Counted from the stretch's first letter, positions 29,706 to 58,142 are shown. The stretch: DNA of 64,000 nucleotides from a virus (IMGVR_UViG_3300016665_000872:1-64000), one strand, 5' to 3'. Numbers and translations: made by a program. The notes: generated from the letters alone by a model not told the origin.

Positions 29706-29740
29706 GGACGCTCATCCTGACTACCTAGTCATTCTAAAAA

Positions 29741-29815: not shown

Positions 29816-29843
29816 GCCGCCAATTCAGTCGTAGACATTGCGA

Positions 29844-31528: not shown

Positions 31529-31530
31529 GA

Positions 31531-31776: not shown

Positions 31777-31869
31777 AGCAAGCCCTAGCTTGGTCAGCCC
31801 ATTCTAGAAAGCCAGGACATGCATCCTGACCGACAGAAGTTTCCCTGGGTTGCCCAGTAGTGGCCCTGA

Positions 31870-32424: not shown

Positions 32425-32513
32425 GGCGGCCGTTCAGGCAGGTGCGTCAGGCCATGCTAGCTAGGGCTGCCATTGCGCCAGCCCTAGTGGTGTTCTCTAA
32501 TGTGGTTTTGAAG

Positions 32514-33014: not shown

Positions 33015-33058
33015 GTCCCTAAATGATCAGAGGTAGTGACTTAACGGCCGGCTCACTA

Positions 33059-36279: not shown

Positions 36280-36314
36280 GCCCGCCAGTTTTAAGCGAAT
36301 TCTAGGAAGAGTGG

Positions 36315-37721
36315 CTAAGGAACAATCACCGGTGCACCGGGGTCGCCTGACTCCAGAAACTGTAGAACTGGGAAGCTATTACCGCCAATACTGATGCTTT
36401 CCTCGAAACGCTGGAGAGCCGAATTAAAGATTCTCAGCCTCTGGGTTCCTCGCTCTAGCCACCAGTCGTTCTGCCTGCACCATGTCGGGTCGGGCTCCTC
36501 TCCGTCGTTCCACAGGAGTGGTCTTGGGTCCGGCCGGATCGCGTCCCGCGGGTCGCCGCCCGGAAATAAAATGATTCCGACGGCATCGGCAATAGTCATT
36601 GCAAAGCGATCCCAGTTGATCTGCCTGAGCCGGAAGTAGTCCATGATCTCGTCACTGGAGTACCTTCGCTCTTTTCGAGCTGCGTACTCCAGGAATGTGC
36701 GTTCATCGCCTACTGGGTAGTCATCCGGCTCGAGCCAAGGCACACCGCATGCCCACCTGACGCAGTGAATATGCTTGCAATCTCTACGCTCGTCTCGCCG
36801 ATCGGGCAGCGTCCGCCACTGCCGGTAGTAGCCGACACCCTCCCTTTCCCACGCTGACCGCACGCTTCGGGCGGTATTGGGCTTCGGGAATAGGTCCCGT
36901 GGCTGCCCCTTGGCCGGGAATTCCAGGTTTGCCAATGCTCCACCCAGGTGATCCGGGCAGCAACAGAAAAACTTGAAGCTGCTGCATAGATGACGTGTCC
37001 CGTCCAGTCGAAATGTCTTCGGCGATGCGGGGTCGTAGTCCAGCCTGCTCCAGTAGACCCGGCCATTGCGCTCAATCCGCCCAGCGGGGCGAGAGAGGTC
37101 GAAGGTCAGGGTCAGCGCGCCCGAGCTAGCCGCAATCAGTGTCAGGGCGACACTGCCGACATCCCGCGACACTAAATCACTTGGATAGCTGGGGCCGATT
37201 GCTGAGTCTTCGAACTGATCGCCAATGAAGATGGAGAAGATCGCGACCTGGGCTGGACTGAGGATTCCCGAGACATCCAGCGTCAATGTGTGCTCTGCCG
37301 GATCAGGACTCGCCGTGTTGAGCGTGACCCGAGCGCTGGTAATCGGCTGCGGCAGCATGATCGAGCCGCGAGTTCTGCAGCTCACATACCACGCCTTTTC
37401 CGGTGAATCCTTGGACGGGAAGAGCGTCGTGATCTCCTTGGAGCTCCCGTCGACTGCACCCGTAATGAACCGCGCAAGACTGTGGACTTGGTAATCCCCC
37501 CAGCTTCTTCCGGTTCCGAAGAAGTACTCCTGTCCGAGTTTCCAGCGTTTGTAGTCCGTTGAGCGGTTGTAGGACTCAATCACCGTTGGATAGACGGTGC
37601 TGCCGTATTCGCCCAGACCCTGTCCCTTCGATGGGTAAATCCCAGCGCTGCGAGGGCGAGGCGACCGGTCAATCGGCCCAAGGCTCAGGCCTTGGTCGAG
37701 TCTTCGGCCGATCCGACCCAT
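36315..37721 (-). CDS. virion structural protein (unknown role)
   Basis: 468-aa ORF in the tail gene block. No motif recognised. Confidence 0.6.
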   Translation of the reverse strand: MGRIGRRLDQGLSLGPIDRSPRPRSAGIYPSKGQGLGEYGSTVYPTVIESYNRSTDYKRWKLGQEYFFGTGRSWGDYQVHSLARFITGAVDGSSKEITTLFPSKDSPEKAWYVSCRTRGSIMLPQPITSARVTLNTASPDPAEHTLTLDVSGILSPAQVAIFSIFIGDQFEDSAIGPSYPSDLVSRDVGSVALTLIAASSGALTLTFDLSRPAGRIERNGRVYWSRLDYDPASPKTFRLDGTRHLCSSFKFFCCCPDHLGGALANLEFPAKGQPRDLFPKPNTARSVRSAWEREGVGYYRQWRTLPDRRDERRDCKHIHCVRWACGVPWLEPDDYPVGDERTFLEYAARKERRYSSDEIMDYFRLRQINWDRFAMTIADAVGIILFPGGDPRDAIRPDPRPLLWNDGEEPDPTWCRQNDWWLERGTQRLRIFNSALQRFEESISIGGNSFPVLQFLESGDPGAPVIVP

Positions 37722-38479
37722 CAGCCAAAGCGGCGCGAGTAATAGGACTGAGCTCCGGGGCCGGAGCGCTGGGCCATAGCTCTTGACGCACGGGCGCGGG
37801 CCTGGGCGCGATTGCCGCCGGACATGACCTCAACCACCGGGTCACGCCTGTTCAGCACGCTGTCAGTGGCGTCGATTTCGGTGACCACAGAGGCGCCACG
37901 CGGAGCCACCTTATTCCTTGTGCCCTCCGCGGCTAACTGGTCGACGCCGCCGGAGCCGGGCATGCCGGCGACCGTGGAGCCTCGCCGCAGGTTCTCCAGC
38001 TGGCTCGTGGCTTCCTGGTTGCGGTAGACCTCGCTGTCCAGCCGGAAGCGATCTCGCTCCTCCGCCAGCGTTGAGTTCTTCGCTAGCGCATCCTGGTACA
38101 TCTTGGATGTTTCATCCAGTTTGGTGCGGTAGCTATCAACGCTGCTTCGGTAGTCATCCAGTTGTCGCTGGTATGACTGAAGCAGGCCGGAATAATCAGG
38201 TGCCGCCTGCTGGGGCTGAGGCGCGGGTTGCGCAGGTTGCGACGGCCCGCTCTGTTCTTCGCTGCGAGCGCCTTGAGCGATCTGGTCAAACAGGCCGCCC
38301 TTGCCAGGCTCGTTCCCTCCCCGCAGCTTTGAAGTGTTCGTGCTGAGCCAGGACAGGATCTCCCGGTCGCTTGCGCCTCGTGCCTTCGCGGCCTCGTAAT
38401 CCTTGTGACCGAAGAAGTCCGGAGAATCGCCGTAGGCCGTTGAAAATTCCATGACCTTAGAAGAATCCGCCCTGGGCAA
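37721..38479 (-). CDS. hypothetical virion-module protein
   Basis: 252 aa with a Q/P-rich linker and a coiled-coil centre. Confidence 0.6.
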   Translation of the reverse strand: MPRADSSKVMEFSTAYGDSPDFFGHKDYEAAKARGASDREILSWLSTNTSKLRGGNEPGKGGLFDQIAQGARSEEQSGPSQPAQPAPQPQQAAPDYSGLLQSYQRQLDDYRSSVDSYRTKLDETSKMYQDALAKNSTLAEERDRFRLDSEVYRNQEATSQLENLRRGSTVAGMPGSGGVDQLAAEGTRNKVAPRGASVVTEIDATDSVLNRRDPVVEVMSGGNRAQARARASRAMAQRSGPGAQSYYSRRFG

Positions 38480-38996
38480 AAACGATGACGCGAGTAGCAG
38501 TGCTCGGTGCTGTCAATGCCGCCGACACGCCGGTATATAGCAATGCACCTGATGGAACGTAGAGGCCAGTATTCTTCTTGTCTGTTTCAGTCGGGTAGGA
38601 CGCCATTGTCGACGCGGGCGATGCCAGGTTCGGCACTGGCACCGACAGGGGTGGCAGGCTGATATTCACACGCTGTCCAGCCGTATTGCCGCCGGGGATG
38701 GCGATGGCAGCAACGGGAACCGTGTTCACCGTGCTAATACTCGCGGTGCTAGTCGCTGTACTTAGAAATGCAATGACAGTGCTTGTTGTCGTCGATGCCT
38801 CGGTGATCATCACCGAAAGCGAGTCGACAACAGCTCCGTCATTACTACTGCAGTCAACCAAGAGCTGGCAGCCAGCCCCTGATGGTGTATAGAAATTCGT
38901 TGCGCTTGTTAGCGCTGCAGCCCCTCCAATTGCCGCAAACGCGTGCAGGGGGCGATCGACGAGAAGGGGCTGCTTATTCGATGAGCTAGTTGCCAA
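38457..38996 (-). CDS. hypothetical virion-module protein
   Basis: 179 aa, Ser/Thr/Ala-rich and beta-type. Confidence 0.6.
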   Translation of the reverse strand: MATSSSNKQPLLVDRPLHAFAAIGGAAALTSATNFYTPSGAGCQLLVDCSSNDGAVVDSLSVMITEASTTTSTVIAFLSTATSTASISTVNTVPVAAIAIPGGNTAGQRVNISLPPLSVPVPNLASPASTMASYPTETDKKNTGLYVPSGALLYTGVSAALTAPSTATRVIVFAQGGFF

Positions 38997-39055
38997 TGCC
39001 TACCTCTTGGCTTAGCGCCACATCAGTACCCTGGCAAGCAGTCTAGCGACGGCAT

Positions 39056-39547
39056 TTAGGCCGGCTTTGGCACATCTCGCTGGGGGCCAGATGCCGCCAC
39101 ATTCGGGCTGGTCGACATTCCAAGGGGTGGCGGTAGCGGTGCGTTATACCGCTGAGCTGCATCAATCCTGTTCAGGGGACTACCAGGGCCAAAGCCGTAG
39201 CCCGGGGTGTTGACCTGCAGCTCAGCGCCGCGAACCGGAGGTGGCACCTGGGGCATCGCCGGACCAGGGGTTGTCAGCACTGCGGTTTCCGGTACCTCGA
39301 CGCGTCGGCCATCGCCATAGGGGCTGACCTGAGGTACTAGGCCCTTGCTGATCAAGTCATACCCAAACTGCGACGGGGCAGGCTGAACTGATAGGTAGTT
39401 CTGGATATTGGTCGGCACCATGCCACCGGCTGCCGTGAACTGCCGGTCCATCGTCCGGGCCTGCTCCCTATCCTGATTCCACTGGCCTGGCTGCAGTTGC
39501 CGGACTGGGCCCTCGAGATACTGACTTTGCGGGTGACGAGGATTCAT
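39056..39547 (-). CDS. hypothetical protein
   Basis: 163-aa Pro/Gly/Gln-rich ORF. Confidence 0.55.
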   Translation of the reverse strand: MNPRHPQSQYLEGPVRQLQPGQWNQDREQARTMDRQFTAAGGMVPTNIQNYLSVQPAPSQFGYDLISKGLVPQVSPYGDGRRVEVPETAVLTTPGPAMPQVPPPVRGAELQVNTPGYGFGPGSPLNRIDAAQRYNAPLPPPLGMSTSPNVAASGPQRDVPKPA

Positions 39548-39554
39548 GGCAGTC

Positions 39555-40556
39555 TCAGCTCCCGAAGCTTGTGATATTCATGTCACGCGCCATTGGCAAA
39601 TAGCGCGCCATTAGTGCCTTCAACTTCTCGTTGTCCCCGAAGGCCTGCACCTGGTTGGCGGCGGGCAGCGGGCTGTTGAAGTTCAAGTTGCTGTTCTGGG
39701 CCGTCGCCTTGGGGGCAATCTCCAGCTCAGCCCCGTAGGCCGCCTGCATCCCGGCAGCAGTAGGGGCCATGGCTGAGGGCTGCGCAGTCTGTGCGCCGCC
39801 TGCCAGGGGATTGGGGCTGCCTTCCGATGGGAAGAACTGCTCCTTCTCCATGGCCAACTTGATGGCCGCATCGTCTGGGCCGTCTGTCATCTGCCCCTTG
39901 GGGAAGCGCTTGTTGTATTCGCGCAGCGCAAGGGCGGGGTTGGCCTCTGCCCACTGGGAGATGCGCTTGGCCTCATCGCCCTGCATCCCCATCGTCAGGC
40001 CCTGGATGATTTCATCCTTGGCGCCGATACCGACCGCGCGCTGGGCCTCGTAGAAGTCGGCCAGCTTGGTCTTCTCGGGAGCCGATGGGTTCTGGGCCAG
40101 CTCGAGCATGGCCTTGCCGGTTTCGCCCTTCCAGTAATCGTCAGAGGCGTACTGCTGCATCATCCGCAGCTTCTCGGCATCCTGGGCCCGGGCAGCAGGA
40201 GTGACCTGCGCAGCAGGGGCACCGATAGTCGGCGCCGCAGCTGGAGATGCGGGCCGCCAGGCGCCCAGATTCGGGTCGCCCTGAATTCGCGCCAGGTTTT
40301 CAGCTCGGCTGTCCTTGAACGGCGAGACGTACGGGGTGTCCGCCACCGGTGCGCTCGCTGCACGGGCAGGTAGGCCCTTCCCGGGGATGCCAATGCCGGT
40401 CTTGTTCAGGAAGTCAACGGCTCCCTGGAAGCCAGCTTGGACAGTGCCGCCCAGGTCGTAGGTGACGCCGCCGGGAGACATCATCCGGAGACTGCCGTCA
40501 GCCATCCGGTATCGCTTGCCCTTGCCAGGGACTGTGATCCAACCCTCAGAGGGCAT
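39555..40556 (-). CDS. hypothetical protein
   Basis: 333-aa ORF. Confidence 0.6.
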   Translation of the reverse strand: MPSEGWITVPGKGKRYRMADGSLRMMSPGGVTYDLGGTVQAGFQGAVDFLNKTGIGIPGKGLPARAASAPVADTPYVSPFKDSRAENLARIQGDPNLGAWRPASPAAAPTIGAPAAQVTPAARAQDAEKLRMMQQYASDDYWKGETGKAMLELAQNPSAPEKTKLADFYEAQRAVGIGAKDEIIQGLTMGMQGDEAKRISQWAEANPALALREYNKRFPKGQMTDGPDDAAIKLAMEKEQFFPSEGSPNPLAGGAQTAQPSAMAPTAAGMQAAYGAELEIAPKATAQNSNLNFNSPLPAANQVQAFGDNEKLKALMARYLPMARDMNITSFGS

Positions 40557-40559
40557 CGC

Positions 40560-41045
40560 CTACCTCCAACACATGGAACCCGTCGCCTGCGCCACGCGCG
40601 TACCGACGGCTGTATCTGCTGGCCCCGGGATGGCCATGATGAATTCGGCGCCGGCTCGCTCAAAGGCGTAGCGACGCACGTCCTCGCGGCGATAGTTCGC
40701 CACGTAGAGCGTCTCGGCGAGTAGATCCACCTCCCGCAGGTAGACCTCTCGGTAGTCCTTGGCAGCCTTCAGGGGATCGGACTGGAAGATCGCCCGGTCC
40801 GTGTCACCCGTGATCCGCTCAATCCGGCTGGGCTGAGGTTGATCCTCGACCCGAAAGACCTGAGAAACGCGGTAAGCCTTGTCGCAGCGATCGAGATGCT
40901 CGATCACCCGCGAATAGAAATAGCTGTCGGGAATGCGTGCCATCGCCTCTTCGAGGCGGGCAACATCACCGGCCGGCAGGCTGGCTCCGACATTGACGCC
41001 AAGGTGGAAGCGGCAGCGGGATTTGTTGTAATCGTCCAGCTCCAC
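40560..41045 (-). CDS. hypothetical protein
   Basis: 161-aa ORF, 4 nt from the downstream gene. Confidence 0.6.
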   Translation of the reverse strand: MELDDYNKSRCRFHLGVNVGASLPAGDVARLEEAMARIPDSYFYSRVIEHLDRCDKAYRVSQVFRVEDQPQPSRIERITGDTDRAIFQSDPLKAAKDYREVYLREVDLLAETLYVANYRREDVRRYAFERAGAEFIMAIPGPADTAVGTRVAQATGSMCWR

Positions 41046-41080
41046 GCATGCACCCGGACACTAAAGCGATTCTAGGCTTG

Positions 41081-41512
41081 TCAGCCGACGTAAATCAGAT
41101 CTTCCGCGATCACTTGATCCCAGTCGACGCGGCCGATCTTCTTAAGCTGATCGAGATTGGTGAAGCGCTCGCCAGAGAGGCTTTGGCGCAGTTCGACGAT
41201 GCGCCGTGCAGTGGAATAGCCTATGCCCTTGACGGCCTTGGCAATGGCCTCAGCTGAAGCCGTATTGATGTTCAGGCGGGTGTCAGCCGGAATTGCAGCC
41301 TCGGGGATCTTGTCCTCATCGACAGGCTTTTCCGCTGACTGCGGCTTGGGCACCTCGCCGGTCCGGCCCTTGCCGGGTTCGTAGGAGACGAGGTCGCTCA
41401 GCTGCACGTACTGCACGTTCCCCGCCGAGTTGCGGATCATCGCGTAGTCCTTGTCGTGATGCGCGATGAACTCGACGATTTGACCGTTCTTGGTGTTCTG
41501 GTACAGCGCCAT
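41081..41512 (-). CDS. helix-hairpin-helix (ComEA-like) DNA-binding protein
   Basis: C-terminal LNINTASAEAIAKAVKGIGYSTARRIVELRQSLSGERFTNLDQL fits the ComEA HhH pattern. Confidence 0.65.
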   Translation of the reverse strand: MALYQNTKNGQIVEFIAHHDKDYAMIRNSAGNVQYVQLSDLVSYEPGKGRTGEVPKPQSAEKPVDEDKIPEAAIPADTRLNINTASAEAIAKAVKGIGYSTARRIVELRQSLSGERFTNLDQLKKIGRVDWDQVIAEDLIYVG

Positions 41513-41516
41513 GGCA

Positions 41517-41550
41517 AATAAAAAAGGGCGCCTGATCGATCAGACGCCCT
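41517..41550 (-). terminator. strong rho-independent terminator after the capsid gene pair
   Basis: On the - strand, GGGCGTCTGATC/GATCAGGCGCCC (12-bp near-palindromic stem) is followed by TTTTTTATTT, 24 nt after the stop at 41574. Confidence 0.75.
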
Positions 41551-41573
41551 CATTGTAGGGAAAAGTCCCTGGT

Positions 41574-42221
41574 TCAGTTCTCCCGGATGAAGGGGATGCG
41601 GACATCGCCCACATCGGCCACTTCGTCCTCGAGGTAGTAAGCCACCTCGACAATCAGGGGAGTGCCGCCGGTCGCCGTCGAGCTCAGGTTGGAACCTGCC
41701 GAGGTGCCGGTGTTGTCGGTCACGTAGACCTTCAGGGTCAGAGCGCTGCCGGTGATCGCCACGGGGGTGATGGCACCGAACTGAGTCTGAGCCGGAGCGA
41801 TGGTCGTGCTGCTCACCGCCAGGGCCGAAGAATCGGTACCCAGAGCGGTGGTGGCAATCTGACCAGTGGCCGTGGTGTTCACGGCACTCGCCAGCTTGAT
41901 CCGGTTGGTGTTGGTGCCAACCAGACCGGAAAACGCAGTGCCTTGACCGCGATCCTTCCGCATGTCGGGCACGCGGATGCCCAGTTGGTAGACCTTGGCG
42001 CCAACGGGGATCACCAGGCTTGTGACGTCAGCACGGGGCTTGTCATCACCACGCATGTCGGGCGAGGGGATGGTCACGTCAAAGCTGGTGGCACCGGTGG
42101 AGCCAACCAGGGCATAGCCGGTCCGGTGGTAGTACACGCGGCCGGGGAGGGCAATGACGGACTGGCTCTGGTAGGAGCTCAGCCGGTTAACGTAATTGCC
42201 CGGGTAGATCGACTTCGCCAT
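41574..42221 (-). CDS. virion structural protein co-transcribed with the capsid gene
   Basis: 215-aa beta-rich ORF lying 17 nt downstream of the capsid stop and upstream of the strong terminator. Confidence 0.65.
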   Translation of the reverse strand: MAKSIYPGNYVNRLSSYQSQSVIALPGRVYYHRTGYALVGSTGATSFDVTIPSPDMRGDDKPRADVTSLVIPVGAKVYQLGIRVPDMRKDRGQGTAFSGLVGTNTNRIKLASAVNTTATGQIATTALGTDSSALAVSSTTIAPAQTQFGAITPVAITGSALTLKVYVTDNTGTSAGSNLSSTATGGTPLIVEVAYYLEDEVADVGDVRIPFIREN

Positions 42222-42237
42222 TGTTCGTTACCTCCTA

Positions 42238-42533
42238 TCAGTAAACGAAGGAGTAAGCGACGGTCACGAAGTCCTTATTCAGGATTTCGAAGCCGGCGAA
42301 GAGGGACCAGATCATGATGATGAAACGACTGAAATCGTCGTTGTTGTTCAGCAGGATCTGGGCGTTGTTGCCGCCGATGCCCACGCCCACGGCTTGAGGG
42401 CCGAAGAACAGCATCGGAGCAGCCGCGGTCACGGTGTTAGTGATCGAGGCGTCGGTGATGGTCACCTGCAGGGACTTCTCGGGCAGGTTGGTGCTTTCGA
42501 ACCAGCGCACGCCTTCGAATAAGAAGCCACTCA
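42238..42533 (-). CDS. major capsid protein exon 5 (5' border approximate)
   Basis: SGFLFEGVRWFESTNLPEKSLQVTITD...MLFFGPQAVGVGIGGNNAQILLNNNDDFSRFIIMIWSLFAGFEILNKDFVTVAYSFVY*. Confidence 0.7.
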
Positions 42534-45500
42534 CTTGTGTTATCCTAGGGGTTCTTTATCCCCTAGTTCTCGCAGTTTCCCATCCTGCGAGGTCAGACTA
42601 TCTCATCTACTTAACCATTTATGCAAGGCGTCAAGCTTGACATTCCCGAGTCAGTAGTTAGGGAGCTGGCCGCTGAATGGTCCGATACTCGAGCCGCTAA
42701 GCAGCTGGGTATTGCCACCTCCAGCTTCTTCCTTCTCAGGAAGCGATACGGAATTCCCTCCTTTACGGAAAGCACCGGATGCCGGCGCTCCCTCCAAGAG
42801 GGAGCTCTGCTGAATCCTGGAGAAGGTTCAGCGCATCCCTGGCACAAAGGGATCAAGGTTGACTGTTTCGAGACGATCGACACGCCAGGCAAGGCGTACT
42901 ACTTCGGATTGCTGGCCGCCGACGGACATACGTCCCTCAGGCCCAATGCGAAGTTCGTCTCAATCGAGCTGCAAATGCCTGACGCGGAGGTCCTTGATGG
43001 ACTCGCGCGCCTGATCAATTGCCAGGGGAAGATTGCCGAGCTCAAGCGAGCAGGCAAGCGTCCCTCCAGGCGACTCCTGGTCCACAGTCGCCTGTTGACC
43101 GAATCGCTCATCCGGCAGGGGATCACACTGAATACTGAGCAACATTCCTTGCCAGCATCAATTCCAACAGCTCTTAGGGGGCACTGCCTGCGAGGACTGC
43201 TTGACGGTGATGGTCACATCAGTGCCAAGAAAAAGTCCTTGTACTTATGCAGCTGCTCATCCAGCATCATCCAGACGGTCTCTGGATGGGTGCAGGCTGA
43301 ATTCGGGCTGAGCCCAGCAGTGCGGTGCAGGGTGCTTCCATCCGGCAAGCCTTTTTTCACGATGACGTTCGGCGGGGGGCCGCGTGAAGTCCTGAAATGG
43401 ACCTACGGCGCTCCCGGGCCAGTGATTGCCAGGAAGAAGGCTGAAGCCGATGCTTGGATTGCAATGGTTGAGTAGCAGGGCACTCGTGGGTCCATTACTG
43501 AGTTTCCTCTCGGGACCTAGTCGTTGAACCTTCCAGGCTGTGACCTGGCTTGGCTGCTGATTCCCCGTTCAATGGAGGGGTTCCAGCAATTCACCCTGTT
43601 TGCTGTACGACTCACGCCGTACAGGCCCAATGGTTCTTAGGCATCACAGGCTGACCTGCCACAAAACCGGCCTGGCCGTAAGCAGGACCCATGCCGCGGA
43701 AGAAGTTGGCATTAGGAGCCAGCTCCGGCTGCATGGGATTCACCATGCCGTTACCGGCATAGCGAGCAATCTCACGGAAGGCGTCGTTCTGACGCAGGTG
43801 CATCATTGCGGTGGGGTCCGCAATACAGCGGTAGTACCCATCAGCGAAGGTGGGCACGTTGCGCTTACGCATGTCCTTGACCACCTCGAGGAGGTCGGTC
43901 TTGACATCAAACTTGGCAGATTCGCCAGTTGCGTAGGTCAGGAAGGGGGCAGAACCAGCCTTGGTTTTATCCAGAGGGTAGTAATAGCCACCTTGGGTGC
44001 TGTCGGCGCGGCCATTAGCCTCTGCCTTGAACAGCTCATCTGCGAAGACACGATCCCGCCAGCGGCGGTAGTCCGTATGTACTACTCAGGTTTCCCTGGA
44101 GACTGACTATCTTTTCACCCTTCGAGCCGAGTCGAGTGGGGTGCAGGGCGCTCTTGCCTGTTATTAAGGGGGCTAAACCCCTCAGGTAGTCGATGCACCT
44201 TCCAGCAATGTATTGCTGGCTTGGCTCAGGATTGCCATAGGCTGCCACAATGCCCTTAGGTTTCCCTGAATTCACCCTGTTTTCACTGAGCAATTACTCA
44301 CTCAGGCGACAACTGTCTTATCGAGCAGAGTCAGACTTCCGATCGATTGATGGAAGACATTGAGATTACCGGTATCCAGCAAAAGACGCTGGGCGGTAAG
44401 TAGAGTTTCCCTCAATTATGTTATCCCAGGGGCTCTTTATCCCCTGGTTCTGCAGCTTTACCATCGCTGCAGTTCAGACTATCTCATCACCCGCAATGGG
44501 GTGCCTCGCGCTCGTGGGGGCCTCTCCTTGCTTGATCCGGCAGTGGGAGAGGTCGACTTTATATGCCATGCAATCTGGTACGAAAGGGCTAATTTGCGGT
44601 ATAAATTCCCGCAATGCCTTCTTATTGCACCCGAGCCTCAAGTATCCGCTCGAGCGATCTAGGCGAAATCGCACTCCAGTCAATGATTCAATCCAGGCGG
44701 CTAACAGTTTGTTCTCCTGTTCGGTGAATGCGCACTTGGCTATACAGCCTTTTGCTTCAACATAAGGATAAAGCTGCTCCTTGCCTGACTTCAGACGATG
44801 TCGAGTAAATCGTTCGCTTGAAGTGATTGAGCCATCATCACACCAGAGAATCGCGAGCTCCTGCAGGCCAAGGCCATCCAGGAATGCCTGATCAAGGCGC
44901 TTCCTTGGACGAGGTCCTGCAAGTTCATACCATCGCGTAAACCACGGCAAAAACAGTTCATGGTCGTCAACAACGTAGAGATAGCTCTCATAGCATTTCT
45001 CCTTCGTCTGACCAGATGACTGCATATATGGTCCAAGAACTCTGCGCTCTTTCCCGAGAATCTTGTTAACCCGGGTTGCCTTCCATTCCAGCCACTTGAG
45101 CTGAGCACTGCTGTGACCAATTCTTAGGTGGACGTACTTGCTTCGCTGCAAGCCGAGCCACCCATCGCCTAACAGGCATCCTCGCAGGAATGCCTGTTGC
45201 TCAAGCGGGAGTTCGTCGAGGACCATGTCTCCCCTAGTCGTTGAACCTTCCAGCGCGTTACCGCGCTGGCTTGGCTGCTGATCGCCCATTGTACGCCACG
45301 GCGTGCATTGGCGGGGTTCCAGCAGTTCACGAGGTTTTCACTGCCTGATCGCTCAGGCAGGCGCCAAGAAACTAGCGACTTTGAAAGTTGAGGGAGCAGA
45401 AGTATCGGTAGGATCTGCGGGACCTGTGTATTCGCGCAAGGTGACTAGCACCTTATCCTTAACGATACTCCGCGAAGATGCGGTGCCCAGGGTTTGATCA

Positions 45501-46022
45501 GCCGTGCGCTCACGGCTGTCTTTGGTACCCGGAGCTCCCCAGAAGCGGTACACGTTGTTATCCCATCGGCTCTTTATCCGATGGTTCTGCGGCTTTGCTA
45601 TCGCCGCAGGTCAGACTATCTCTTCAGCATCGCTGCTGTCCCGCGCTCGTGGGCCTTTACTGTCCTTTCTGGACTCCTTGGCCTAGTCGTTGCACCTTCC
45701 GGCCGTCCCCAGCCGGCTTGGCTCAGGATTCCCCATCGCCCAGTTCATCACGCTGGGCGTTAATCATTCTTCTGCCAAGTAATGGCTTTCCTTGTCAAGG
45801 TTCTCGGGTAATCCCGAATCGATGCTTAAGAGGGGTTCCCTGAGTTCACGGGATTTATTGACCGCTAACGAGCAATCAACGGTCAAGCTGTACAGTCTGG
45901 CCTGGCTGTTTGGCGAAGTCGTGTACTACGACAGGCTCAACAGCCATCTCCACGATATAACTCGGGTGCGGCCGGTACAGCTCTGCGCCTAACAGCTTCG
46001 GGAAGTCATTGTCAATCCACAT
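42238..46022 (-). CDS. major capsid protein, split gene (5 exons, 4 group I introns)
   Basis: Five open segments join into an HK97-type MCP of about 400 aa (..QPGQTVQLDR|YRFWG..VTLREYTGP.. ..FEGVRWFESTN..FFGPQAVGVGIGG..DFVTVAYSFVY). The intervening sequences carry group I P/Q/R/S elements. Confidence 0.75.
42534..43614 (-). mobile_element. group I intron 4 of the capsid gene (antisense LAGLIDADG ORF)
   Basis: P GTGAATTGCTGGAACCCC, Q AATCAGCAGCCAAGCC, R at 43516-43530 and S at 42594-42607 (+ coordinates). The + strand ORF 42621..43475 fills the R-S interval. Confidence 0.7.
42621..43475 (+). CDS. LAGLIDADG homing endonuclease (double motif, N-terminal HTH), antisense to its host intron
   Basis: Motifs YYFGLLAADGHT and CLRGLLDGDGHI, with an N-terminal HTH AAKQLGIATSSFFLLRKRYGI. 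Confidence 0.8.
   Translation: MQGVKLDIPESVVRELAAEWSDTRAAKQLGIATSSFFLLRKRYGIPSFTESTGCRRSLQEGALLNPGEGSAHPWHKGIKVDCFETIDTPGKAYYFGLLAADGHTSLRPNAKFVSIELQMPDAEVLDGLARLINCQGKIAELKRAGKRPSRRLLVHSRLLTESLIRQGITLNTEQHSLPASIPTALRGHCLRGLLDGDGHISAKKKSLYLCSCSSSIIQTVSGWVQAEFGLSPAVRCRVLPSGKPFFTMTFGGGPREVLKWTYGAPGPVIARKKAEADAWIAMVE
43615..44084 (-). CDS. major capsid protein exon 4 (borders approximate)
   Basis: ..HTDYRRWRDRVFADELFKAEANGRADSTQGGYYYPLDKTKAGS...VVKDMRKRNVPTFADGYYRCIADPTAMMHLRQND...GFVAGQPVMPKNHWA. Confidence 0.65.
44085..44304 (-). mobile_element. group I intron 3 of the capsid gene (ORF-less, about 220 nt)
   Basis: P GTGAATTCAGGGAAACC, Q AATCCTGAGCCAAGCC, R GGAAGGTGCATCGACTACC (44187-44199 on +), S GAAAAGATAGTCAGTC (44103-44116 on +). 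Confidence 0.65.
44305..44412 (-). CDS. major capsid protein exon 3 (borders approximate)
   Basis: It is the only open frame here: RETLLTAQRLLLDTGNLNVFHQSIGSLTLLDKTVVA, followed by TGA in a hairpin. Confidence 0.55.
44413..45355 (-). mobile_element. group I intron 2 of the capsid gene (sense LAGLIDADG ORF)
   Basis: It has the same core elements (R at 45233-45247, S at 44475-44488 on +). The ORF 44474..45289 lies between R and S, and its stop is inside S. Confidence 0.7.
44474..45289 (-). CDS. LAGLIDADG homing endonuclease in intron 2
   Basis: Motifs FLRGCLLGDGWL and LAILWCDDGSI. The likely start is the internal ATG 45226 (MVLDELPLEQQ), because the first 21 codons overlap intron elements Q and R. 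Confidence 0.8.
   Translation of the reverse strand: MGDQQPSQRGNALEGSTTRGDMVLDELPLEQQAFLRGCLLGDGWLGLQRSKYVHLRIGHSSAQLKWLEWKATRVNKILGKERRVLGPYMQSSGQTKEKCYESYLYVVDDHELFLPWFTRWYELAGPRPRKRLDQAFLDGLGLQELAILWCDDGSITSSERFTRHRLKSGKEQLYPYVEAKGCIAKCAFTEQENKLLAAWIESLTGVRFRLDRSSGYLRLGCNKKALREFIPQISPFVPDCMAYKVDLSHCRIKQGEAPTSARHPIAGDEIV
45356..45550 (-). CDS. major capsid protein exon 2 (3' border approximate)
   Basis: YRFWGAPGTKDSRERTADQTLGTASSRSIVKDKVLVTLREYTGPADPTDTSAPSTFKVA.. This is part of ORF-track 45353..45553. Confidence 0.6.
45551..45878 (-). mobile_element. group I intron 1 of the capsid gene (ORF-less)
   Basis: P1-like hairpin TTGACCGT/GCGGTCAA with U.G at the CGT|TGA border. P GTGAACTCAGGGAACCCC, Q AATCCTGAGCCAAGCC, R GGAAGGTGCAACGACTAGG (45682-45696 on +), S GAAGAGATAGTCTGA (45612-45625 on +). 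Confidence 0.7.
45879..46022 (-). CDS. major capsid protein exon 1
   Basis: ATG 46022 is preceded by GGAG. The sequence is MWIDNDFPKLLGAELYRPHPSYIVEMAVEPVVVHDFAKQPGQTVQLDR, and the next codon is TGA inside a hairpin. Confidence 0.65.
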
Positions 46023-46046
46023 GGGATGAAACGCTCCGAAGAGTGA

Positions 46047-46823
46047 ATGCGAGAGAGAGGGCGTGCATTACGCCCTCCAAAGCAGACTATAGTGTGGCTT
46101 TGTAGGGAAAAACTTTTGGAGCCCGCTGACGTCCGCGGGCTGCTGGCCTTACTCCTGGCTGACGGCAGCCTCGTCCCATATCGCAGTCCTGGAGGGGGTT
46201 ATGTCCAACTCACCCTCACAGCCGGACTGAACGAATCCGCTTTTCTTGAGGAAAAGGTCGCTGAATTCAGGCATTTCATCCCAACGGATGCCCAAATTGC
46301 TCACTACACGACCACCCCTCGGGCCAACGGCAAAACCACGATGGTCCTGCGGTTTCGCGTTTCGACCAACAAACTGCGGCCCATCTACAACCTCCTCTAC
46401 CCAGGCGGCGAGCGAACGATCACCCGTTCGGCGCTAGACCTCCTGGGTGGTACGGCTGCCGCGTGGATGTGGGCGGAGGGCGCCAGGCGGCAGCGGGATA
46501 ACAGCTTCCAATTGGCCCGGGTCGGCACTACATACGAAGAAGCCGAGCTCATCGGCCAGTGGCTGACGATGTTGACTGGCGCCGACTCCCGCATTGACGA
46601 GGAGCGCGTCAGGCCCCGTCTTCTTTTTTCCGCTGCCCAGGCCGCAAAGATCCAAGAAGCACTGCTTCCCTACGCACCGGTCAGCCGCAAACACCTATTC
46701 CTCTCTGAGATCTGGGATGAGCGATCCATTCGTAGTGCACGCACTCAGCTACTGCTTGGGAAAAGGGGAGATTCAGCTCAAGGGGCGGATCAAGCGCCCG
46801 TGGCTGAAGATCCAGCGACCTGA
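46047..46823 (+). CDS. LAGLIDADG-type endonuclease-like protein (second motif degenerate)
   Basis: Motifs LLALLLADGSL and AAWMWAEGAR. It is similar in layout to the intron 2 enzyme. The start may be GTG near 46093. Confidence 0.6.
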   Translation: MRERGRALRPPKQTIVWLCREKLLEPADVRGLLALLLADGSLVPYRSPGGGYVQLTLTAGLNESAFLEEKVAEFRHFIPTDAQIAHYTTTPRANGKTTMVLRFRVSTNKLRPIYNLLYPGGERTITRSALDLLGGTAAAWMWAEGARRQRDNSFQLARVGTTYEEAELIGQWLTMLTGADSRIDEERVRPRLLFSAAQAAKIQEALLPYAPVSRKHLFLSEIWDERSIRSARTQLLLGKRGDSAQGADQAPVAEDPAT

Positions 46824-47307
46824 GACCGAGCGCACCTACCTCGACCATCAGATCCGCAAGCTGCGTAAATTCCACGACGGCCCGCACGATGCGATCTGGG
46901 ACCGGATCCCGGGTCCTGGCTTTTATGACATCGAGCGGCTGCGATTCAAGGGCAGCCAGCTCTGGCACGTCTATGAGCTCCTCTACCCCCGGGATGAGTG
47001 GACCCTGACCCCAGACATCCTGCGCATGACGGGCATGACTGGCATTGCAGCCCTTTGGTGCGACTGCGGCCACTGGAAGAACGGCACGATGCGCTTCGGG
47101 GGGCGTGATCTGAATATCACCAGGGACGACTACGCGCTCCTGGCGACTCATCTCGCTGATCTTGGCTTCCACTGCCGCATTGAGAACCGCGGGCGTCTTG
47201 TTGTGGCCGTCACTATGACCCCGCTCTATCTCAGGGACTTCATTCGCAAGCTGCGGCCCCACGTCCACCGCTCGATGCATCACACCTTGGTGAAGCCACG
47301 CCGCTAA
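46594..47307 (+). CDS. LAGLIDADG-type endonuclease-like protein (motifs degenerate)
   Basis: The likely start is ATG 46717 (MSDPFVVHALSYCLGKGEI..). The second motif is IAALWCDCGHW. It overlaps the previous ORF in another frame. Confidence 0.55.
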   Translation: MTRSASGPVFFFPLPRPQRSKKHCFPTHRSAANTYSSLRSGMSDPFVVHALSYCLGKGEIQLKGRIKRPWLKIQRPETERTYLDHQIRKLRKFHDGPHDAIWDRIPGPGFYDIERLRFKGSQLWHVYELLYPRDEWTLTPDILRMTGMTGIAALWCDCGHWKNGTMRFGGRDLNITRDDYALLATHLADLGFHCRIENRGRLVVAVTMTPLYLRDFIRKLRPHVHRSMHHTLVKPRR

Positions 47308-47530
47308 CATCAAGAAGCCCCGAAGAAGAACGGCGTCAGGGGCATAATCCACCAGGAGTTCAAGTTTTTGCCGTTTCCTTGAACTGGTGAGTGAACCGCC
47401 GTGCGACTGATCACCGTGCGGCGGCGCCTGGGCCTGGTTTTCTCTAGCATGCTTGCAATCGCGGGCATTATATGCAGAGGGCGATCGATTTCTGCGATGC
47501 CGCCACGGCTATTTCACCGGGGATTGAGCC

Positions 47531-48331
47531 ATGAGCGTGCTCTCCCAGAGTGATGCCATTGAGGCCCTTCGCAGGAGCTACGGGGGCAGCGACAGCACAG
47601 CGCCATCTTTCCTGAGGCCCCAGTACGTTCGGCACAATAGTTTCAGCAAGGCTCAAGACTTCGGCCCCAGGGACAACCTCAATGCTGTCGTCAGTGGATT
47701 AGTCGGCGGCGAGGTCGGGGCTCCCACGCTGTTCTTCAAGGTGCAGCTCAACAGTCCCGCCGACGTGCGCATCGTCAAGGGCAGTATCAATCCCAGGACG
47801 GACCAGTACATCGCTGTCGGCATCACAGATGGGGACCGCCGCCCGCTTCCCCTCGATGAGCTGGGCTTCCTGTCGGCCAACGACGTCCATAACACCGAGG
47901 ACAACGAGTCCCTGGCGCGCTCGCCAGCCGGCACCTATTACTTCACGGTGAGCTCCAGCCAGTGGCAGGCGCTCCCCTTTTCTGTGGGGCTGCTGGTCAT
48001 CAGCTACAAGGAGGTCTCAGGCTTCCTCTCCGGCACCGGCGATGTCACGGGCCGCCTGGCCATGGCCAAGCTCGAGGGTGCGGCCCTGGGCTCCGACGCG
48101 ACCAGTGCTGCCATCCCTGTTCCCGCGACGATCGAGCGGCTGGATGGCGCTACTGGTGGCGCTGCTCCCCTGGCAGGTGAGTTGGCGATCTTGAGCGGTG
48201 CCATCACCGGCACCATGACGCCCTATGGCTATCTGATGCAGACCCATCGCCTCGAGGGTGCTGCCAGCGCCGCCGCGCCCGTTACCGGCACTCTCACGGT
48301 CACCACCCCGGGCGGCGGGTACGGATACTAA
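47531..48331 (+). CDS. hypothetical protein
   Basis: 266-aa ORF on the + strand within the otherwise - strand virion module. Confidence 0.6.
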   Translation: MSVLSQSDAIEALRRSYGGSDSTAPSFLRPQYVRHNSFSKAQDFGPRDNLNAVVSGLVGGEVGAPTLFFKVQLNSPADVRIVKGSINPRTDQYIAVGITDGDRRPLPLDELGFLSANDVHNTEDNESLARSPAGTYYFTVSSSQWQALPFSVGLLVISYKEVSGFLSGTGDVTGRLAMAKLEGAALGSDATSAAIPVPATIERLDGATGGAAPLAGELAILSGAITGTMTPYGYLMQTHRLEGAASAAAPVTGTLTVTTPGGGYGY

Positions 48332-48396
48332 GGCTTGCGGTCTGTCTGCACTGGCGTTCAAAATTGCCACAATAGAGAGGAAGAATTAGGCGCGAC

Positions 48397-48819
48397 ATGG
48401 CCTTCTCGCAGTACCTTGCCAGTCAAATCTTGAACTGGGTCAAGGGAACAACGTTTGCCTCGTCGCTCAGCAACGTCTTCATCTCGATCCACACGGGCGA
48501 CCCCGGCACTGCTGGCACCGCTAACGACACCACCAGCAATGTGACGGGCACCGCCAACCGTCGCTCGGTCTCCAGCGCCGCCTTCTCCTCTGTTGGCAGT
48601 GCTCCAGGCGGTGGCTTTCAGATCACCAACACCGGCACCGTGCAGCTCACCACCAGTGCGGCCAACAGCACGCCCGTGACCGTCACCCATTTCGGCATCT
48701 GGGACGCCCAGACCGGCGGCAACTTCCTGGCCTCTGGCTCCCTGACGACCAGCGTTTCCATTCAAAACGGCGACACCGTGCAGTTCAACATCGGCGCCAT
48801 GGCCGTGCGGGTGGTCTGA
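48397..48819 (+). CDS. hypothetical conserved phage protein
   Basis: MAFSQYLASQILNWVKGTTF...FISIHTGDPGTAGTANDT...VTHFGIWDAQTGGNFLASG..NGDTVQF is a pattern I recall from phage structural regions. The family name is not known to me. Confidence 0.65.
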   Translation: MAFSQYLASQILNWVKGTTFASSLSNVFISIHTGDPGTAGTANDTTSNVTGTANRRSVSSAAFSSVGSAPGGGFQITNTGTVQLTTSAANSTPVTVTHFGIWDAQTGGNFLASGSLTTSVSIQNGDTVQFNIGAMAVRVV

Positions 48820-48950
48820 TGGCGAAACCCAAGGCCAGCCCCACGGCACAGAAGCACCGCGACCCCGTCCACCACAAGACTCGCCAGGGGCAGGGACGCG
48901 GCAGTAAGCCCAGCCACGGGCGCAAACCATCTCGCGGGCAGGGGCGCTAA
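48819..48950 (+). CDS. very basic 43-aa peptide (doubtful)
   Basis: Below the ORF-track cutoff: MAKPKASPTAQKHRDPVHHKTRQGQGRGSKPSHGRKPSRGQGR. Its ATG overlaps the upstream TGA (TGATG). Confidence 0.3.
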   Translation: MAKPKASPTAQKHRDPVHHKTRQGQGRGSKPSHGRKPSRGQGR

Positions 48951-48969
48951 CCCCTGCCCCTTATGGCGA

Positions 48970-49722
48970 TCAAGCGACGGTCAGGATGCCGGCGTTGGAC
49001 GTACGGGACGGGGCGCCGCCATTCGAGCTCACGATCACCCGATAGCGATTGGCGTTCAGGCCCGTGCTGTTGCTAATCGAGAGGGTCGCTGTGGTGGCAC
49101 CGCTGTAGACGCCGCCGTTGGTGATGTTGGTGTAGCTGGTGCCGCCATTGGTCGACAGCTGCCACTGATAGCTCAGGCTGCCGCCATCGTTGGTGCTGGC
49201 CGTTACGGTGAACGTGGTCGCAGCGGGCGCTGTCACCGAGCGGTTCGGGGGCTGAGCTGAAATCGTGATCAGATCCAGGTTCAGCTCCAGCTGGTACTTC
49301 AGGGTCGAGTAATCGGTGTGCTCGACCACAACCCAGAGCCGATCGCCACTGCCAACACTGAAGGGTCCCAGTGCAGCAACCGAGCGCGAGTCAGCAGGAC
49401 GCTTGCGGCCCAGGCAGGTCACCGCAGCGCTCGGATCAGCCACGCCATTGACCTGCTGGAGCACTGCGATATTGCCGACAGCCCGGTGGGATGCATGGAA
49501 GCCGGCCTCGCTGTAGGGCCGGATGCGCACTGTATAGGCACCGGGGTCTGTGCCGTTGCCGCTGTTGTTGATTTCGTATTGATCAACCGACCCGTAAATA
49601 CCGCTCAGACGGGAATAATCGCTTTTCGTGTCACCCGACCTGGGGCCACGTAGCTGTGCCGGGCCGACGATCGCCTGCTTGCCGTCCGTGCCACGGCGAT
49701 TGATTTTGTCAATGATGGCCAT
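48970..49722 (-). CDS. Ig-like domain virion protein
   Basis: The C-terminal roughly 95 aa (ITISAQPPNRSVTAPAATTFTVTAS..LSYQWQLSTNGGTSYTNI..ATLSISNST..NRYRVIVSS) have a bacterial Ig-like pattern. Confidence 0.7.
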   Translation of the reverse strand: MAIIDKINRRGTDGKQAIVGPAQLRGPRSGDTKSDYSRLSGIYGSVDQYEINNSGNGTDPGAYTVRIRPYSEAGFHASHRAVGNIAVLQQVNGVADPSAAVTCLGRKRPADSRSVAALGPFSVGSGDRLWVVVEHTDYSTLKYQLELNLDLITISAQPPNRSVTAPAATTFTVTASTNDGGSLSYQWQLSTNGGTSYTNITNGGVYSGATTATLSISNSTGLNANRYRVIVSSNGGAPSRTSNAGILTVA

Positions 49723-49764
49723 GGACGCAAATAGCCCGCACGCAATAGGGCTAGTCTAGCCGCC

Positions 49765-50979
49765 CTAATAATCCCAGACCGCCGCAGGTTTTACGCCTGG
49801 ACGAGTAGAGAACTTGCCTCCATTGCGGGTATCAATGTGGATGAAGCCCTTGCACCGACCGTCGCCATAGCCGCCGCTCCATCGCTGGATCAGCCACTGG
49901 TGAAACTGCTGCAGTGAGCCGCCCACCGGATAGATATCCAGCGCCATGCCCTTGACGTGATAGCTATTGGCAACACCGCCGACCTCGCGATTAATCGGCT
50001 CAGGTCTATAGCCACTGGTCACCCCAAGAGGGCCATTCCAGGCCACACGAATCGCATCAAACTCCTTGCAGATCGCCAGGATTGCTTTCTCTTCGGCGCT
50101 GCCGGGCTTAGGCCTGCGCCGGGCGTCGTATTGCAGCACCTCGCCGACAGTGATGTACTGGCCGACGGGGGCTGAGAAGTCCGCCCAGTTCACCGCAGCG
50201 CCTGGGGTGGGCTTTGCTCCAGCTGGCTTGATAGCGCCCCAGTGGGGTGTAAATGCTGCCCAGTGCTCGCCGTCCTCCAGTGTGAACCAGGCGTGGGTGT
50301 CGCCTGCGATCTCTTCCACTTTTGAGACCACGATCTCAGCGCCCTCCTTGTAGAGCTTCTTGCCGTGCTCCGAGAAGTACGCGCTTTCGATTGGCGCTTT
50401 CTTCAGGTAGGTCTCGTGATTGGCCTTGAAGCGCAGCATGCCGCCTCCTTCCGAATTCCAGATGTTTGCTTCCGCCTGGCGGCGGTTCACTAAGCCATCG
50501 AGCGTCTTACCGCCCGCCTTGACGTAAAGCAGCAGCGCCGATTCCATCTGTGCGTACGCGGCTGGATTGCTGGCCCCATCGCGCAGGACGCGGCTGATGG
50601 TCTCGAAGCCCGCAGCCCCGTAGAACCTGGCGCCCATATTCCAGGCGAAGCTCAGCAGCACGGCTTGCCGCTGGGGGCCGAATTGCGCCCAACCCGGAAT
50701 CCGTTCCTGCGGCGGCAGGAACTCCTGGCGCAGCATTTGCTCGAGGTAGCCGCGGCAAATCCTCATGTCGCAGATGTCGCCCATCCGCACCGGTATCCCG
50801 TTGGGATAACGGGTCAGCCCAGCGCAGATCGTGGGGACGCCCACCGCATCCAGGTAGGCCTCGGTCTCGATGCCCTCGAACTTCTCGATCAGCTCGATGG
50901 CGCGCGGGAGAGTATCAGGATGCGTCGCCATGGGTGGATGCAAACCTGAAGTTCCAGCGCGGTGGCATTTCCTCCCCAT
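49765..50979 (-). CDS. cell-wall hydrolase: GH24 lysozyme + M15 peptidase domains
   Basis: IEKFEGIETEAYLDAVGVPTICAGLT (T4-lysozyme-type E/D/T). C-terminal SGYRPEPINREVGGVANSYHVKGMALDI and GFIHIDTR (peptidase M15). The likely start is ATG 50931. Confidence 0.8.
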   Translation of the reverse strand: MGRKCHRAGTSGLHPPMATHPDTLPRAIELIEKFEGIETEAYLDAVGVPTICAGLTRYPNGIPVRMGDICDMRICRGYLEQMLRQEFLPPQERIPGWAQFGPQRQAVLLSFAWNMGARFYGAAGFETISRVLRDGASNPAAYAQMESALLLYVKAGGKTLDGLVNRRQAEANIWNSEGGGMLRFKANHETYLKKAPIESAYFSEHGKKLYKEGAEIVVSKVEEIAGDTHAWFTLEDGEHWAAFTPHWGAIKPAGAKPTPGAAVNWADFSAPVGQYITVGEVLQYDARRRPKPGSAEEKAILAICKEFDAIRVAWNGPLGVTSGYRPEPINREVGGVANSYHVKGMALDIYPVGGSLQQFHQWLIQRWSGGYGDGRCKGFIHIDTRNGGKFSTRPGVKPAAVWDY

Positions 50980-51172
50980 CGAGGACCTTGAGCCCTTGGG
51001 TCAGTGCTGCCTGCTCCGAGAGTCCGCTGCTGCGAAGTTGGGTCACCAATTCCGCCAGCTGCTCCATTCGGGCAATCTGATGAGCTACCTCCTCCTGACG
51101 CGAAGATGCCCCAGCGATGTGACTCGCCAGGGCATCTAAAACATCAGATCGGGCGGCAAGCCGCATGGGCAA
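50915..51172 (-). CDS. hypothetical protein
   Basis: 85-aa helical ORF. Confidence 0.45.
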   Translation of the reverse strand: MPMRLAARSDVLDALASHIAGASSRQEEVAHQIARMEQLAELVTQLRSSGLSEQAALTQGLKVLDGEEMPPRWNFRFASTHGDAS

Positions 51173-51221
51173 CAGCGCGCTCCGTTCAATCTAGCGGTCC
51201 CAGATCTTGCGGAGTGAACGC

Positions 51222-51566
51222 TCAGGCCATCCCGATTTGCTGCAGGATCGCGACCCGAGGATCCATGCCAGCCGGAGCATTGGCGCCCATGGCGAGGACT
51301 CCTTGGGTGCCGGGGAGCTGGTTGGGTCCAGCGGTTTGCTTCACCATCTCTTTGGCCGTGGTGGCCATGGTGCTGGCAACGCTCTGCTGGGCCGTGGCGT
51401 CCTGCTGGGCTGCCGCGATGGCCTGCGGCATCTGGGTAACGCCGCGGGACTGGGCGATCGACTGCTGCTGATGCATGGCCAGCTCCAGTTGCTGAGCACT
51501 GGGTTTGCCGGGGGCGTTGTTCAGTAGCGCCGCGTCGCGATTCATGATGCCGGGGGGCTTGATCAT
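51222..51566 (-). CDS. hypothetical protein
   Basis: 114-aa Q/A/M-rich ORF. Confidence 0.55.
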   Translation of the reverse strand: MIKPPGIMNRDAALLNNAPGKPSAQQLELAMHQQQSIAQSRGVTQMPQAIAAAQQDATAQQSVASTMATTAKEMVKQTAGPNQLPGTQGVLAMGANAPAGMDPRVAILQQIGMA

Positions 51567-51568
51567 GA

Positions 51569-54332: not shown

Positions 54333-54341
54333 AGAACTATG

Positions 54342-57020: not shown

Positions 57021-57076
57021 GGCATCAATCTATCAAGTTTTTCCCTACTGCACGGCCCGGCGTGCGGCAAGGCTAC

Positions 57077-58119: not shown

Positions 58120-58142
58120 TGTGCGGCCTCTCTAATCCCGAA

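Follow-up and report, generated by a model that had tools for sequence, protein, structure and literature searches.

Do the five open segments on the minus strand at 46022..42238 of a 64,000-nucleotide (nt) stretch of viral DNA (IMGVR_UViG_3300016665_000872:1-64000, the whole of which is termed the window) belong to a single gene, and if so, what are the four stretches lying between them, which carry stops in the frame of the segments? According to the original prediction, the segments are the exons of a major capsid gene interrupted by four related group I introns. The results described here largely agree with this: the region is very probably the major capsid gene of a cyanophage resembling Synechococcus phage S-EIVl, with a genome of approximately 85 kb, which has been colonised by four mobile group I introns belonging to one widespread phage family that carries a P7.1 hairpin.

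The exons and the protein they encode

When joined, the five exons comprise 1143 nt, i.e. 380 codons and a stop, and would encode a protein of 380 amino acids (aa), close to the roughly 400 aa originally proposed. Exon 1 (46022..45879; 144 nt), which was recovered as a 100% tblastn piece, opens with the ATG at 46022 and covers codons 1-48 (MWIDN...QLDR), homologues sharing the start MWIDNDFP. It is followed on the minus strand by exon 2 (45550..45374; 177 nt, codons 49-107), exon 3 (44412..44320; 93 nt, codons 108-138), exon 4 (44073..43639; 435 nt, codons 139-283) and exon 5 (42531..42238; 294 nt including the TGA stop, codons 284-380). The corresponding junctions in the protein are R48|Y49, A107|R108, D138|D139 and P283|S284.

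A search of 50,697 phage records by tblastn with the provisional joined protein returned a single match, to S-EIVl (KJ410740.1), a 79-kb cyanophage originating from a high-Arctic lake, in one piece with 66% identity and 100% query coverage. Because the window protein aligns with an uninterrupted S-EIVl open reading frame (ORF), the positions of the junctions in the window could be fixed. An automatic scan of all nearby splice positions arrived at the same four junctions, each having U as the last base of the exon and G as the last base of the intron. A comparison of the corrected 380-aa sequence with 5.8 billion proteins yielded 814 relatives; among the best 120 of these 814, nearly all are 375-387 aa long and at most 96% identical, while six are 349-355 aa long. 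The joined protein is collinear from end to end with more than 100 uninterrupted metagenomic homologues, in which all four junctions correspond to contiguous alignment columns that are invariant, or nearly so, and contain no gap. Homologous phages thus show one continuous ORF at this locus rather than separate genes, and the proposal that the segments join into one continuous protein holds. The true S-EIVl capsid gene is a 383-aa ORF with a GTG start and no introns (L001 6001..7152; loci are numbered here with the prefix L). In the S-EIVl GenBank record, the capsid region (L001 5926..7152; KJ410740.1 60784..62010) is given as a pair of 'hypothetical proteins', of which one has been placed on the wrong strand.

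The original prediction placed both borders of the first intron exactly, including the U.G pair at CGT|TGA and the in-frame join QLDR|YRFWG. It also had each of exons 1-4 running into an in-frame TGA within a hairpin at the exon border. These TGAs are real and are located in the intron helices P1 or P2, but the borders of introns 2-4 are found upstream of them: the 5' splice sites lie 18, 15 and 24 nt before the respective TGAs, and were corrected to GCU|AGU (45374|45373), GAU|AAG (44320|44319) and CCU|AAG (43639|43638).

The capsid identity of the spliced protein was taken from PHROGs and, transitively, from distant representatives of its family, as a Pfam search with the window protein gave no match. 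The protein matches PHROG 1357, 'major head protein', over residues 34-377 (E 3e-21). A full HMMER search of 1.84 billion representatives identified 187 family members, and when 28 full-length distant ones were examined, half of them (14 of 28) matched TIGR04387, the N4-gp56 major capsid family, with a best E of 4.3e-20; a few match Pfam Phage_capsid_2 or _3. One profile of the family gave zero matches against the PDB at E up to 1, and another matched a 'major capsid protein' there at E 0.0026. The gene is part of a structural module: genes for head protein and endolysin lie upstream of it, a terminator is present downstream, and the neighbouring structural genes are undamaged and keep the S-EIVl gene order. 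Together, these profile matches support the predicted assignment of the interrupted gene as a major capsid gene of the N4-gp56 / HK97-type family.

Four related introns and their endonuclease genes

Running the Rfam group I model on the locus, as had been proposed as a check, produced RF00028 matches (cmscan) to all four introns, each extending over the full model: 70.3 bits for intron 3, 50.9 for intron 1, 49.3 for intron 4 and 30.3 (E 8e-5) for intron 2. Two of these exceed the gathering score of 50 bits. A permissive scan of the whole window detected no fifth group I match. With their ORFs removed, introns 1, 2 and 4 are 77-81% identical to one another, and intron 3, the most divergent, is 70-73% identical to the others. 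Both lines of evidence support the proposal that the gene is interrupted by four mutually related group I introns. Comparison by blastn with the introns of cultured phages gave matches limited to the P3-P7 core, at 73-78% identity, with none closely related.

The P1 helix of each intron pairs the final bases of the exon with an internal guide; a U.G wobble marks the cut site, and the guide G is situated 9-14 nt into the intron. The P1 helices of introns 1-4 are, respectively, uugaccgu/GCGGUCAA, cgcuAG/UUGGCG, cgauAA/UUGUCG and gccuAA/UUGGGC, and the 3' ends are ...AACGUG, ...AAUUG, ...AUACG and ...AAGUG, the terminal base always being G. The first in-frame stop past the 5' splice site is a TGA at +1, +19 (45355..45353), +16 (44304..44302) and +25 (43614..43612), which falls in P1 in intron 1, where P2 is missing, and in P2 in introns 2-4. 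The order of the helices is thereafter P3, P4, P5, P6, P6a, P7 (GACUA/UAGUC), P7.1, P8 and P9; introns 1, 2 and 4 also have P9.1 and a GAUAACA tail, both of which are missing from intron 3. The P-, Q-, R- and S-like elements were found in canonical order in all four introns, at the places where they had been predicted. Every one of the compensatory differences listed for P4, the P6a hairpin, and P9 and P9.1 (the two 3' hairpins) was likewise confirmed, and the reported invariance of P7 (GACTA/TAGTC) extends from the window introns to an alignment of 21 introns.

Covariation was studied in this MAFFT alignment of 21 introns, from which ORFs had been excised, using a structure of 72 pairs written from one reference intron. 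In total, 89.1% of cells are paired, compared with 31-44% when the partners are slid by 1-3 columns. Changes on both sides affect 50 of the 72 pairs and 304 cells, and the observed covariation score was not reached by any of 500 shuffles. Pairing is found in 97% of cells for P3, 96% for P4/P5, 99% for P6a, 92% for P8, 93% for P9 and 97% for P9.1. The hairpin named P7.1 is present in all four window introns between the 5' strand of P7 and the 3' strand of P3, and its outer stem is 92% paired in the alignment, with changes on both sides at 5/5 pairs; the inner helix, P7.1a, is 55% paired. We take a hairpin at that position to be the mark of subgroup IA, of the T4 td / Twort type, in the Michel-Westhof scheme.

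The two shorter introns have no ORF. Intron 1 (45878..45551, minus strand; 328 nt) has a long P5 extension and a P1 composed of UUGACCGU/GCGGUCAA, with the U.G pair at CGU|UGA; its orthologues at the same site in L254 and L260 are 81-83% identical. Intron 3 (44319..44074, minus strand; 246 nt) has no same-site relative in the set, its nearest being the site-4 intron of L002, at 74%. Intron 2 (45373..44413, minus strand; 961 nt) conforms to the family structure once its ORF is removed, and the same site is filled in L325 and L326. Intron 4 (43638..42532, minus strand; 1107 nt) has an ORF-less orthologue of 277 nt at the same site in L223, with 88% identity. Introns 1 and 4 are each closest to introns found at the same site in other phages (81-88%).

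The ORFs of introns 2 and 4 are candidate LAGLIDADG homing endonuclease genes. That of intron 2 (45226..44474) is on the minus strand, in the same sense as the capsid gene, and encodes 250 aa matching Pfam LAGLIDADG_2 (46.1 bits, cut-off 25) and PHROG 11023. It occupies the P7.1 loop: the ATG directly follows the P7.1 5' strand, the 3' part overlaps P3', P8 and P7', and the stop is the TGA after TAGTC. Homologues with 56-59% identity are present in the site-107 introns of L325 and L326. The ORF of intron 4 (42621..43475) is on the plus strand, antisense to the capsid gene, and encodes 284 aa matching LAGLIDADG_3 (37.7 bits, cut-off 22.5) and PHROG 4645 (E 1e-23); it fills the P8 loop, between the P8 strands at 43475..43464 and 42618..42607. 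In L280, the exons of which have 71% nucleotide identity, a 284-aa homologue with 50% identity is found at the same site and in the same orientation, and related antisense ORFs also occur in P8 of site-32 and site-291 introns. Both ORFs are intact genes for which the loop and orientation have been kept in diverged phages. The antisense orientation may mean that the endonuclease is not translated from the abundant late capsid transcript, and that ribosomes are kept out of the ribozyme. An identical antisense endonuclease protein is on record for two contigs, including an 85,374-bp ENA contig (ERZ27292652 k141_609375) with the same gene order, which implies that the locus is not a one-off misassembly. 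ORF-containing and ORF-less versions of the intron coexist at site 48 as well as at the site of intron 4, as would be expected if introns go through cycles in which an endonuclease is gained, homing takes place and the endonuclease is lost.

Variation among relatives and the origin of the interruptions

The distribution of introns in related capsid genes was studied by searching IMG/VR for two patterns from the intron core and then comparing the capsid protein with the contigs by tblastn. Among the matches listed from the core-pattern scans are 17 further loci with split S-EIVl-type capsid genes, and 25 further RF00028 matches were found in the split capsid genes of relatives. In 19 loci, 36 junctions were refined, nearly all of which have U at -1 and G at the intron end, as the rule requires, and give back the conserved protein sequence. 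At least four exon-side P1 pairs, including the U.G, can be formed by 22/22 non-redundant introns, against 17% of combinations in which exon and intron were taken from different sites.

Approximately 14 insertion sites can be distinguished, at window codons 4|5, 17|18, 18|19, 32, 36|37, 37|38, 48|49, 107|108, 132/133, 138|139, 139/140, 232|233, 283|284 and 291/292. At each of sites 48, 107 and 283, an intron is present in several loci and most loci have a precise empty site: site 48 is occupied in 8, and site 283 in 9, of the first 19 loci, and the occupancy of site 107 in L325 and L326 was established through the homologues of the intron 2 endonuclease. A second locus with an intron at site 138 was not found, the sole hint of one being protein fragments that end at residue 138 or start at 139. 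An exact-string scan of IMG/VR with the 5' end of intron 3 gave no match; that with the 5' end of intron 2 gave two, neither with a capsid homologue, of which the one inspected (L324) lies inside a long ORF. Introns also number four per gene in L189, L246 and L306. In L002, which encodes a capsid protein 95-97% identical to that of the window, all of the window sites are empty and three group I introns (88.3, 36.8 and 77.3 bits) are inserted within the first 37 codons. Of the 14 sites, eight are located in the opening 144 nt of the 1140-nt gene (binomial P about 1e-4), a region no more conserved than the rest of the gene. The hypothesis that introns insert into unusually conserved DNA was rejected, the mean percentile of the sites being 52 (P = 0.36; 18-nt windows in 74 uninterrupted genes).

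The frequency of interruption was estimated from 118 capsid loci sampled with an exon 5 pattern that is blind to intron status. Uninterrupted genes were found at 86 of these loci and genes split by introns at seven; 23 were cut by a contig end, one appeared frameshifted and one had no capsid homologue. Hence around 7% of assessable alleles (7/~93) contain one or more introns, a minimum estimate, since a first exon of 12 nt is missed by tblastn. The intron family is not specific to the S-EIVl-like lineage but widespread, as among the matches listed from IMG/VR (L083-L322) the R/P7 core motif GGAAGGTKCAWCGACTA and the P7'-to-P9.1 motif GATAGTCTGA..GGATAAAGARCC are each present in more than 120 viral contigs. 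The contigs listed beyond the 17 split capsid loci presumably hold such introns in other genes. No mention of introns in S-EIV1-like phages was found in the papers that were searched.

Several relatives have very short exons. In L002 (8433..10015), the first exon is 12 nt long (ATGTGGATTGAT, MWID) and is followed by an intron at codon 4|5; Rfam matches at the corresponding position suggest the same arrangement in L098, L223, L246, L253 and L306. A 33-nt exon separates sites 37 and 48 in L306, and L278 has an apparent 24-nt exon between sites 283 and 291, the borders of which were not cleanly refined. L246 has at least four introns within the first 48 codons. The introns at codon 18|19 (L002 8745..9668, L098 513..1426 and L246 3232..4156) are of a different structural type, without the ATAGTC strand of P7; the Rfam match covers their 5' part only (36.8 bits in L002), and the LAGLIDADG ORF near their 3' end belongs to a separate endonuclease family.

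The conclusion that the region is a capsid gene colonised by mobile introns draws on features directly visible in silico, namely the exact, frame-preserving junctions, the family and structure of the ribozymes, the match between guide and exon, the intact endonuclease genes and the polymorphism of the insertion sites. From these we infer self-splicing, endonuclease activity and homing, and the following sequence of events can be envisaged. A single minus-strand precursor RNA would be transcribed across the gene, and ribosomes entering an intron would halt at the in-frame TGA in P1 or P2, leaving the ribozyme free to fold. The internal guide would pair with the last 4-8 exon bases to form P1, with its U.G wobble at the splice site, and two guanosine-initiated transesterifications would then excise each intron up to its terminal G. 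The ligated mRNA would be translated into the 380-aa capsid protein. The LAGLIDADG enzymes of introns 2 and 4 would presumably cut intron-less capsid alleles in co-infecting relatives, leading to homing, and the ORF-less introns 1 and 3 could be relics of the homing cycle or passengers spread by co-conversion.

A number of results weigh against this interpretation. The support for splicing in this phage is comparative throughout. Intron 2, at 30.3 bits, falls under the Rfam gathering score of 50 and intron 4, at 49.3, falls marginally under it, these lower scores arising because insertions of 750-850 nt, the ORFs, are penalised by the model. The window protein by itself matches TIGR04387 at E 0.004 and 16.5 bits, below the 60-bit cut-off. 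The AlphaFold2 model of the capsid protein has a mean predicted local distance difference test score of 37.7 (from a shallow alignment of 21 sequences, the rows of which are all at least 82% identical) and is unusable, for which reason the HK97 fold is assigned from profile matches and family membership. Finally, no match to a sigma-70-type promoter was detected in 41400..48500, hence none for the antisense endonuclease gene.

The sub-threshold scores of introns 2 and 4 would also be in line with decay: introns that no longer splice would make the capsid gene a pseudogene, carried by a defective phage or a prophage remnant. This is nevertheless very improbable, as the five exons are intact and in frame, with zero frameshifts or internal stops, and are 96% identical to uninterrupted homologues. 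Furthermore, the core helices are base-paired in all four introns, the differences between introns being compensatory; both endonuclease ORFs are intact; and the flanking structural genes are also intact and retain the S-EIVl order. There is still less to recommend the idea that the segments are separately translated genes, the products of which co-assemble into the capsid with no RNA splicing. Gene callers do report the fragments as separate ORFs, but none of exons 2-5 opens with its own start codon, the GTG 'starts' of exons 2 and 5 being the last bases of the preceding introns. Exon 3 consists of just 31 codons and relatives have micro-exons of 12-33 nt, the intervening sequences match a ribozyme family and obey its splice-site rules, and hundreds of homologues are single ORFs. 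Although the sequence comes from a metagenome assembly, chimeric assembly or insertions of another kind (inteins, insertion sequence elements or group II introns) deserve next to no credence, since introns occupy identical nucleotide positions in many independent assemblies, carry exon-frame stops, and so are not inteins, match RF00028 and no other Rfam family, and have neither terminal inverted repeats nor a transposase.

A more speculative extension of the mobile intron interpretation, which we consider unlikely to be correct as it stands, is that the S-EIVl-like capsid gene is a battlefield on which one intron lineage has repeatedly retargeted itself by changing its guide, the introns and their LAGLIDADG enzymes acting as weapons during co-infection and being more than neutral parasites. 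Retargeting might then proceed by reverse splicing or by endonuclease-driven ectopic insertion. The proposed cutting of the capsid gene of intron-less competitors would resemble the action of the PhiPA3 intron endonuclease.

Neighbouring genes and comparison with known systems

Between the start of the capsid gene and the next minus-strand gene is a 2.3-kb gap containing three plus-strand ORFs (46047..46823, 46594..47307 and 47531..48331). The first gave a 35.3-bit match to Pfam LAGLIDADG_2. No Pfam match was obtained for the second, which shows weak similarity both to the intron endonucleases and, at 31% over 85 aa, to the first; the third gave no match. The position and orientation of all three are conserved in dozens of relatives, whether or not these have capsid introns, and S-EIVl has plus-strand genes at that spot instead of these three ORFs. 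They may be long-resident or domesticated endonuclease genes. No support was found for the LAGLIDADG-like ORFs acting in trans, as they are present equally in relatives with and without introns. On the other side of the capsid gene, a terminator-like hairpin (41551..41524; 12 pairs, then a T run) follows the next gene downstream and is probably the terminator of the capsid operon. The region of the hairpin (41511..41602, minus strand) gave weak, sub-threshold Rfam matches to suhB/mmgR and BjrC68; the suhB/mmgR match, a terminator look-alike, and a weak CyVA-1 match at 47317..47343 were both judged to be due to chance. No tRNA or transfer-messenger RNA genes were found by ARAGORN in the window (1..64000).

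As gene callers fragment this capsid gene, recognition of its introns recovers the principal structural gene of a phage lineage that infects freshwater and polar picocyanobacteria and is widespread but poorly annotated. The population picture is of one intron family at approximately 14 sites of one gene, accompanied by antisense endonucleases. Closely related introns with matched guides at so many sites form a natural series in which the way that group I introns reach new sites can be studied, and which holds both ORF-containing and ORF-less forms and two endonuclease families, one consistently antisense. The lineage is also suited to the question of how the most highly expressed late phage gene tolerates up to four or more ribozymes, and allows a test of whether introns are purely selfish or helpful in competition between phages.

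A capsid gene with four group I introns is rare and, in this instance, well supported, and similar cases are already known in other phages. The original prediction was right that introns in phage capsid genes are rare, but in describing four within one gene as exceptional it overstated the case, given the precedents in crAss-like phages (PMC7886860) and in LittleE (PMC3706429). In the crAss-like Zeta-group phage OLRF01000054, known from metagenomic data in which splicing was untested, the major capsid gene is likewise divided by group I introns into five fragments (Yutin et al. 2021, PMC7886860). That phage belongs to an unrelated lineage with a Bacteroidetes host, and its genome has up to 14 introns and 3 inteins (PMC7886860). 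Its introns were recognised via protein domains, whereas the window ribozymes are resolved to exact junctions with covariation; moreover, the four introns of the window are the only group I matches in 64 kb, and one of their endonuclease genes is antisense. The capsid gene of mycobacteriophage LittleE contains an 819-bp intron, the splicing of which was proven by reverse transcription polymerase chain reaction and N-terminal sequencing (Pope et al. 2013, PMC3706429). It shares with the window an HK97-type capsid gene, a U at the end of the exon, a G at the end of the intron, an ORF of the LAGLIDADG type on the bottom strand and intron-less relatives (PMC3706429). It differs in having a single intron, the assignment of which to group I is tentative; the window has four, with splicing that is predicted. 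A capsid intron in lactococcal phage Tuc2009 is cited in the same work (Pope et al. 2013, PMC3706429).

Other phages resemble the window in the number or mobility of their introns. The genomes of the jumbo gut (Jug) phages, 360-402 kb in size, hold an average of 18.5 group I introns each, and metatranscriptome reads confirmed the splicing of 37/76 predicted introns (PMC12880540). As in the window, essential genes such as terL are divided by group I introns, in this case into 2-3 fragments, and there are many homing endonucleases (PMC12880540). The introns of Jug phages are distributed genome-wide, in contrast to those of the window, which are packed into one gene of an ~85 kb genome. Staphylococcus phage Twort is reported to carry three group I introns in orf142 that self-splice in vitro, and so, like the window, would have several related introns of the P7.1/P7.2 type (subgroup IA) in one protein-coding gene; it differs in being a Firmicutes phage, in having three introns rather than four, and in that self-splicing is said to have been shown in vitro. 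In cyanophage S-PM2, psbA reportedly contains a group I intron and is associated with a free-standing endonuclease, F-CphI, which parallels the window in that a protein-coding cyanophage gene hosts a group I intron with endonuclease-driven mobility. S-PM2 is, by contrast, a T4-like myovirus in which a host-derived photosynthesis gene is interrupted by a single intron, with the endonuclease acting in trans.

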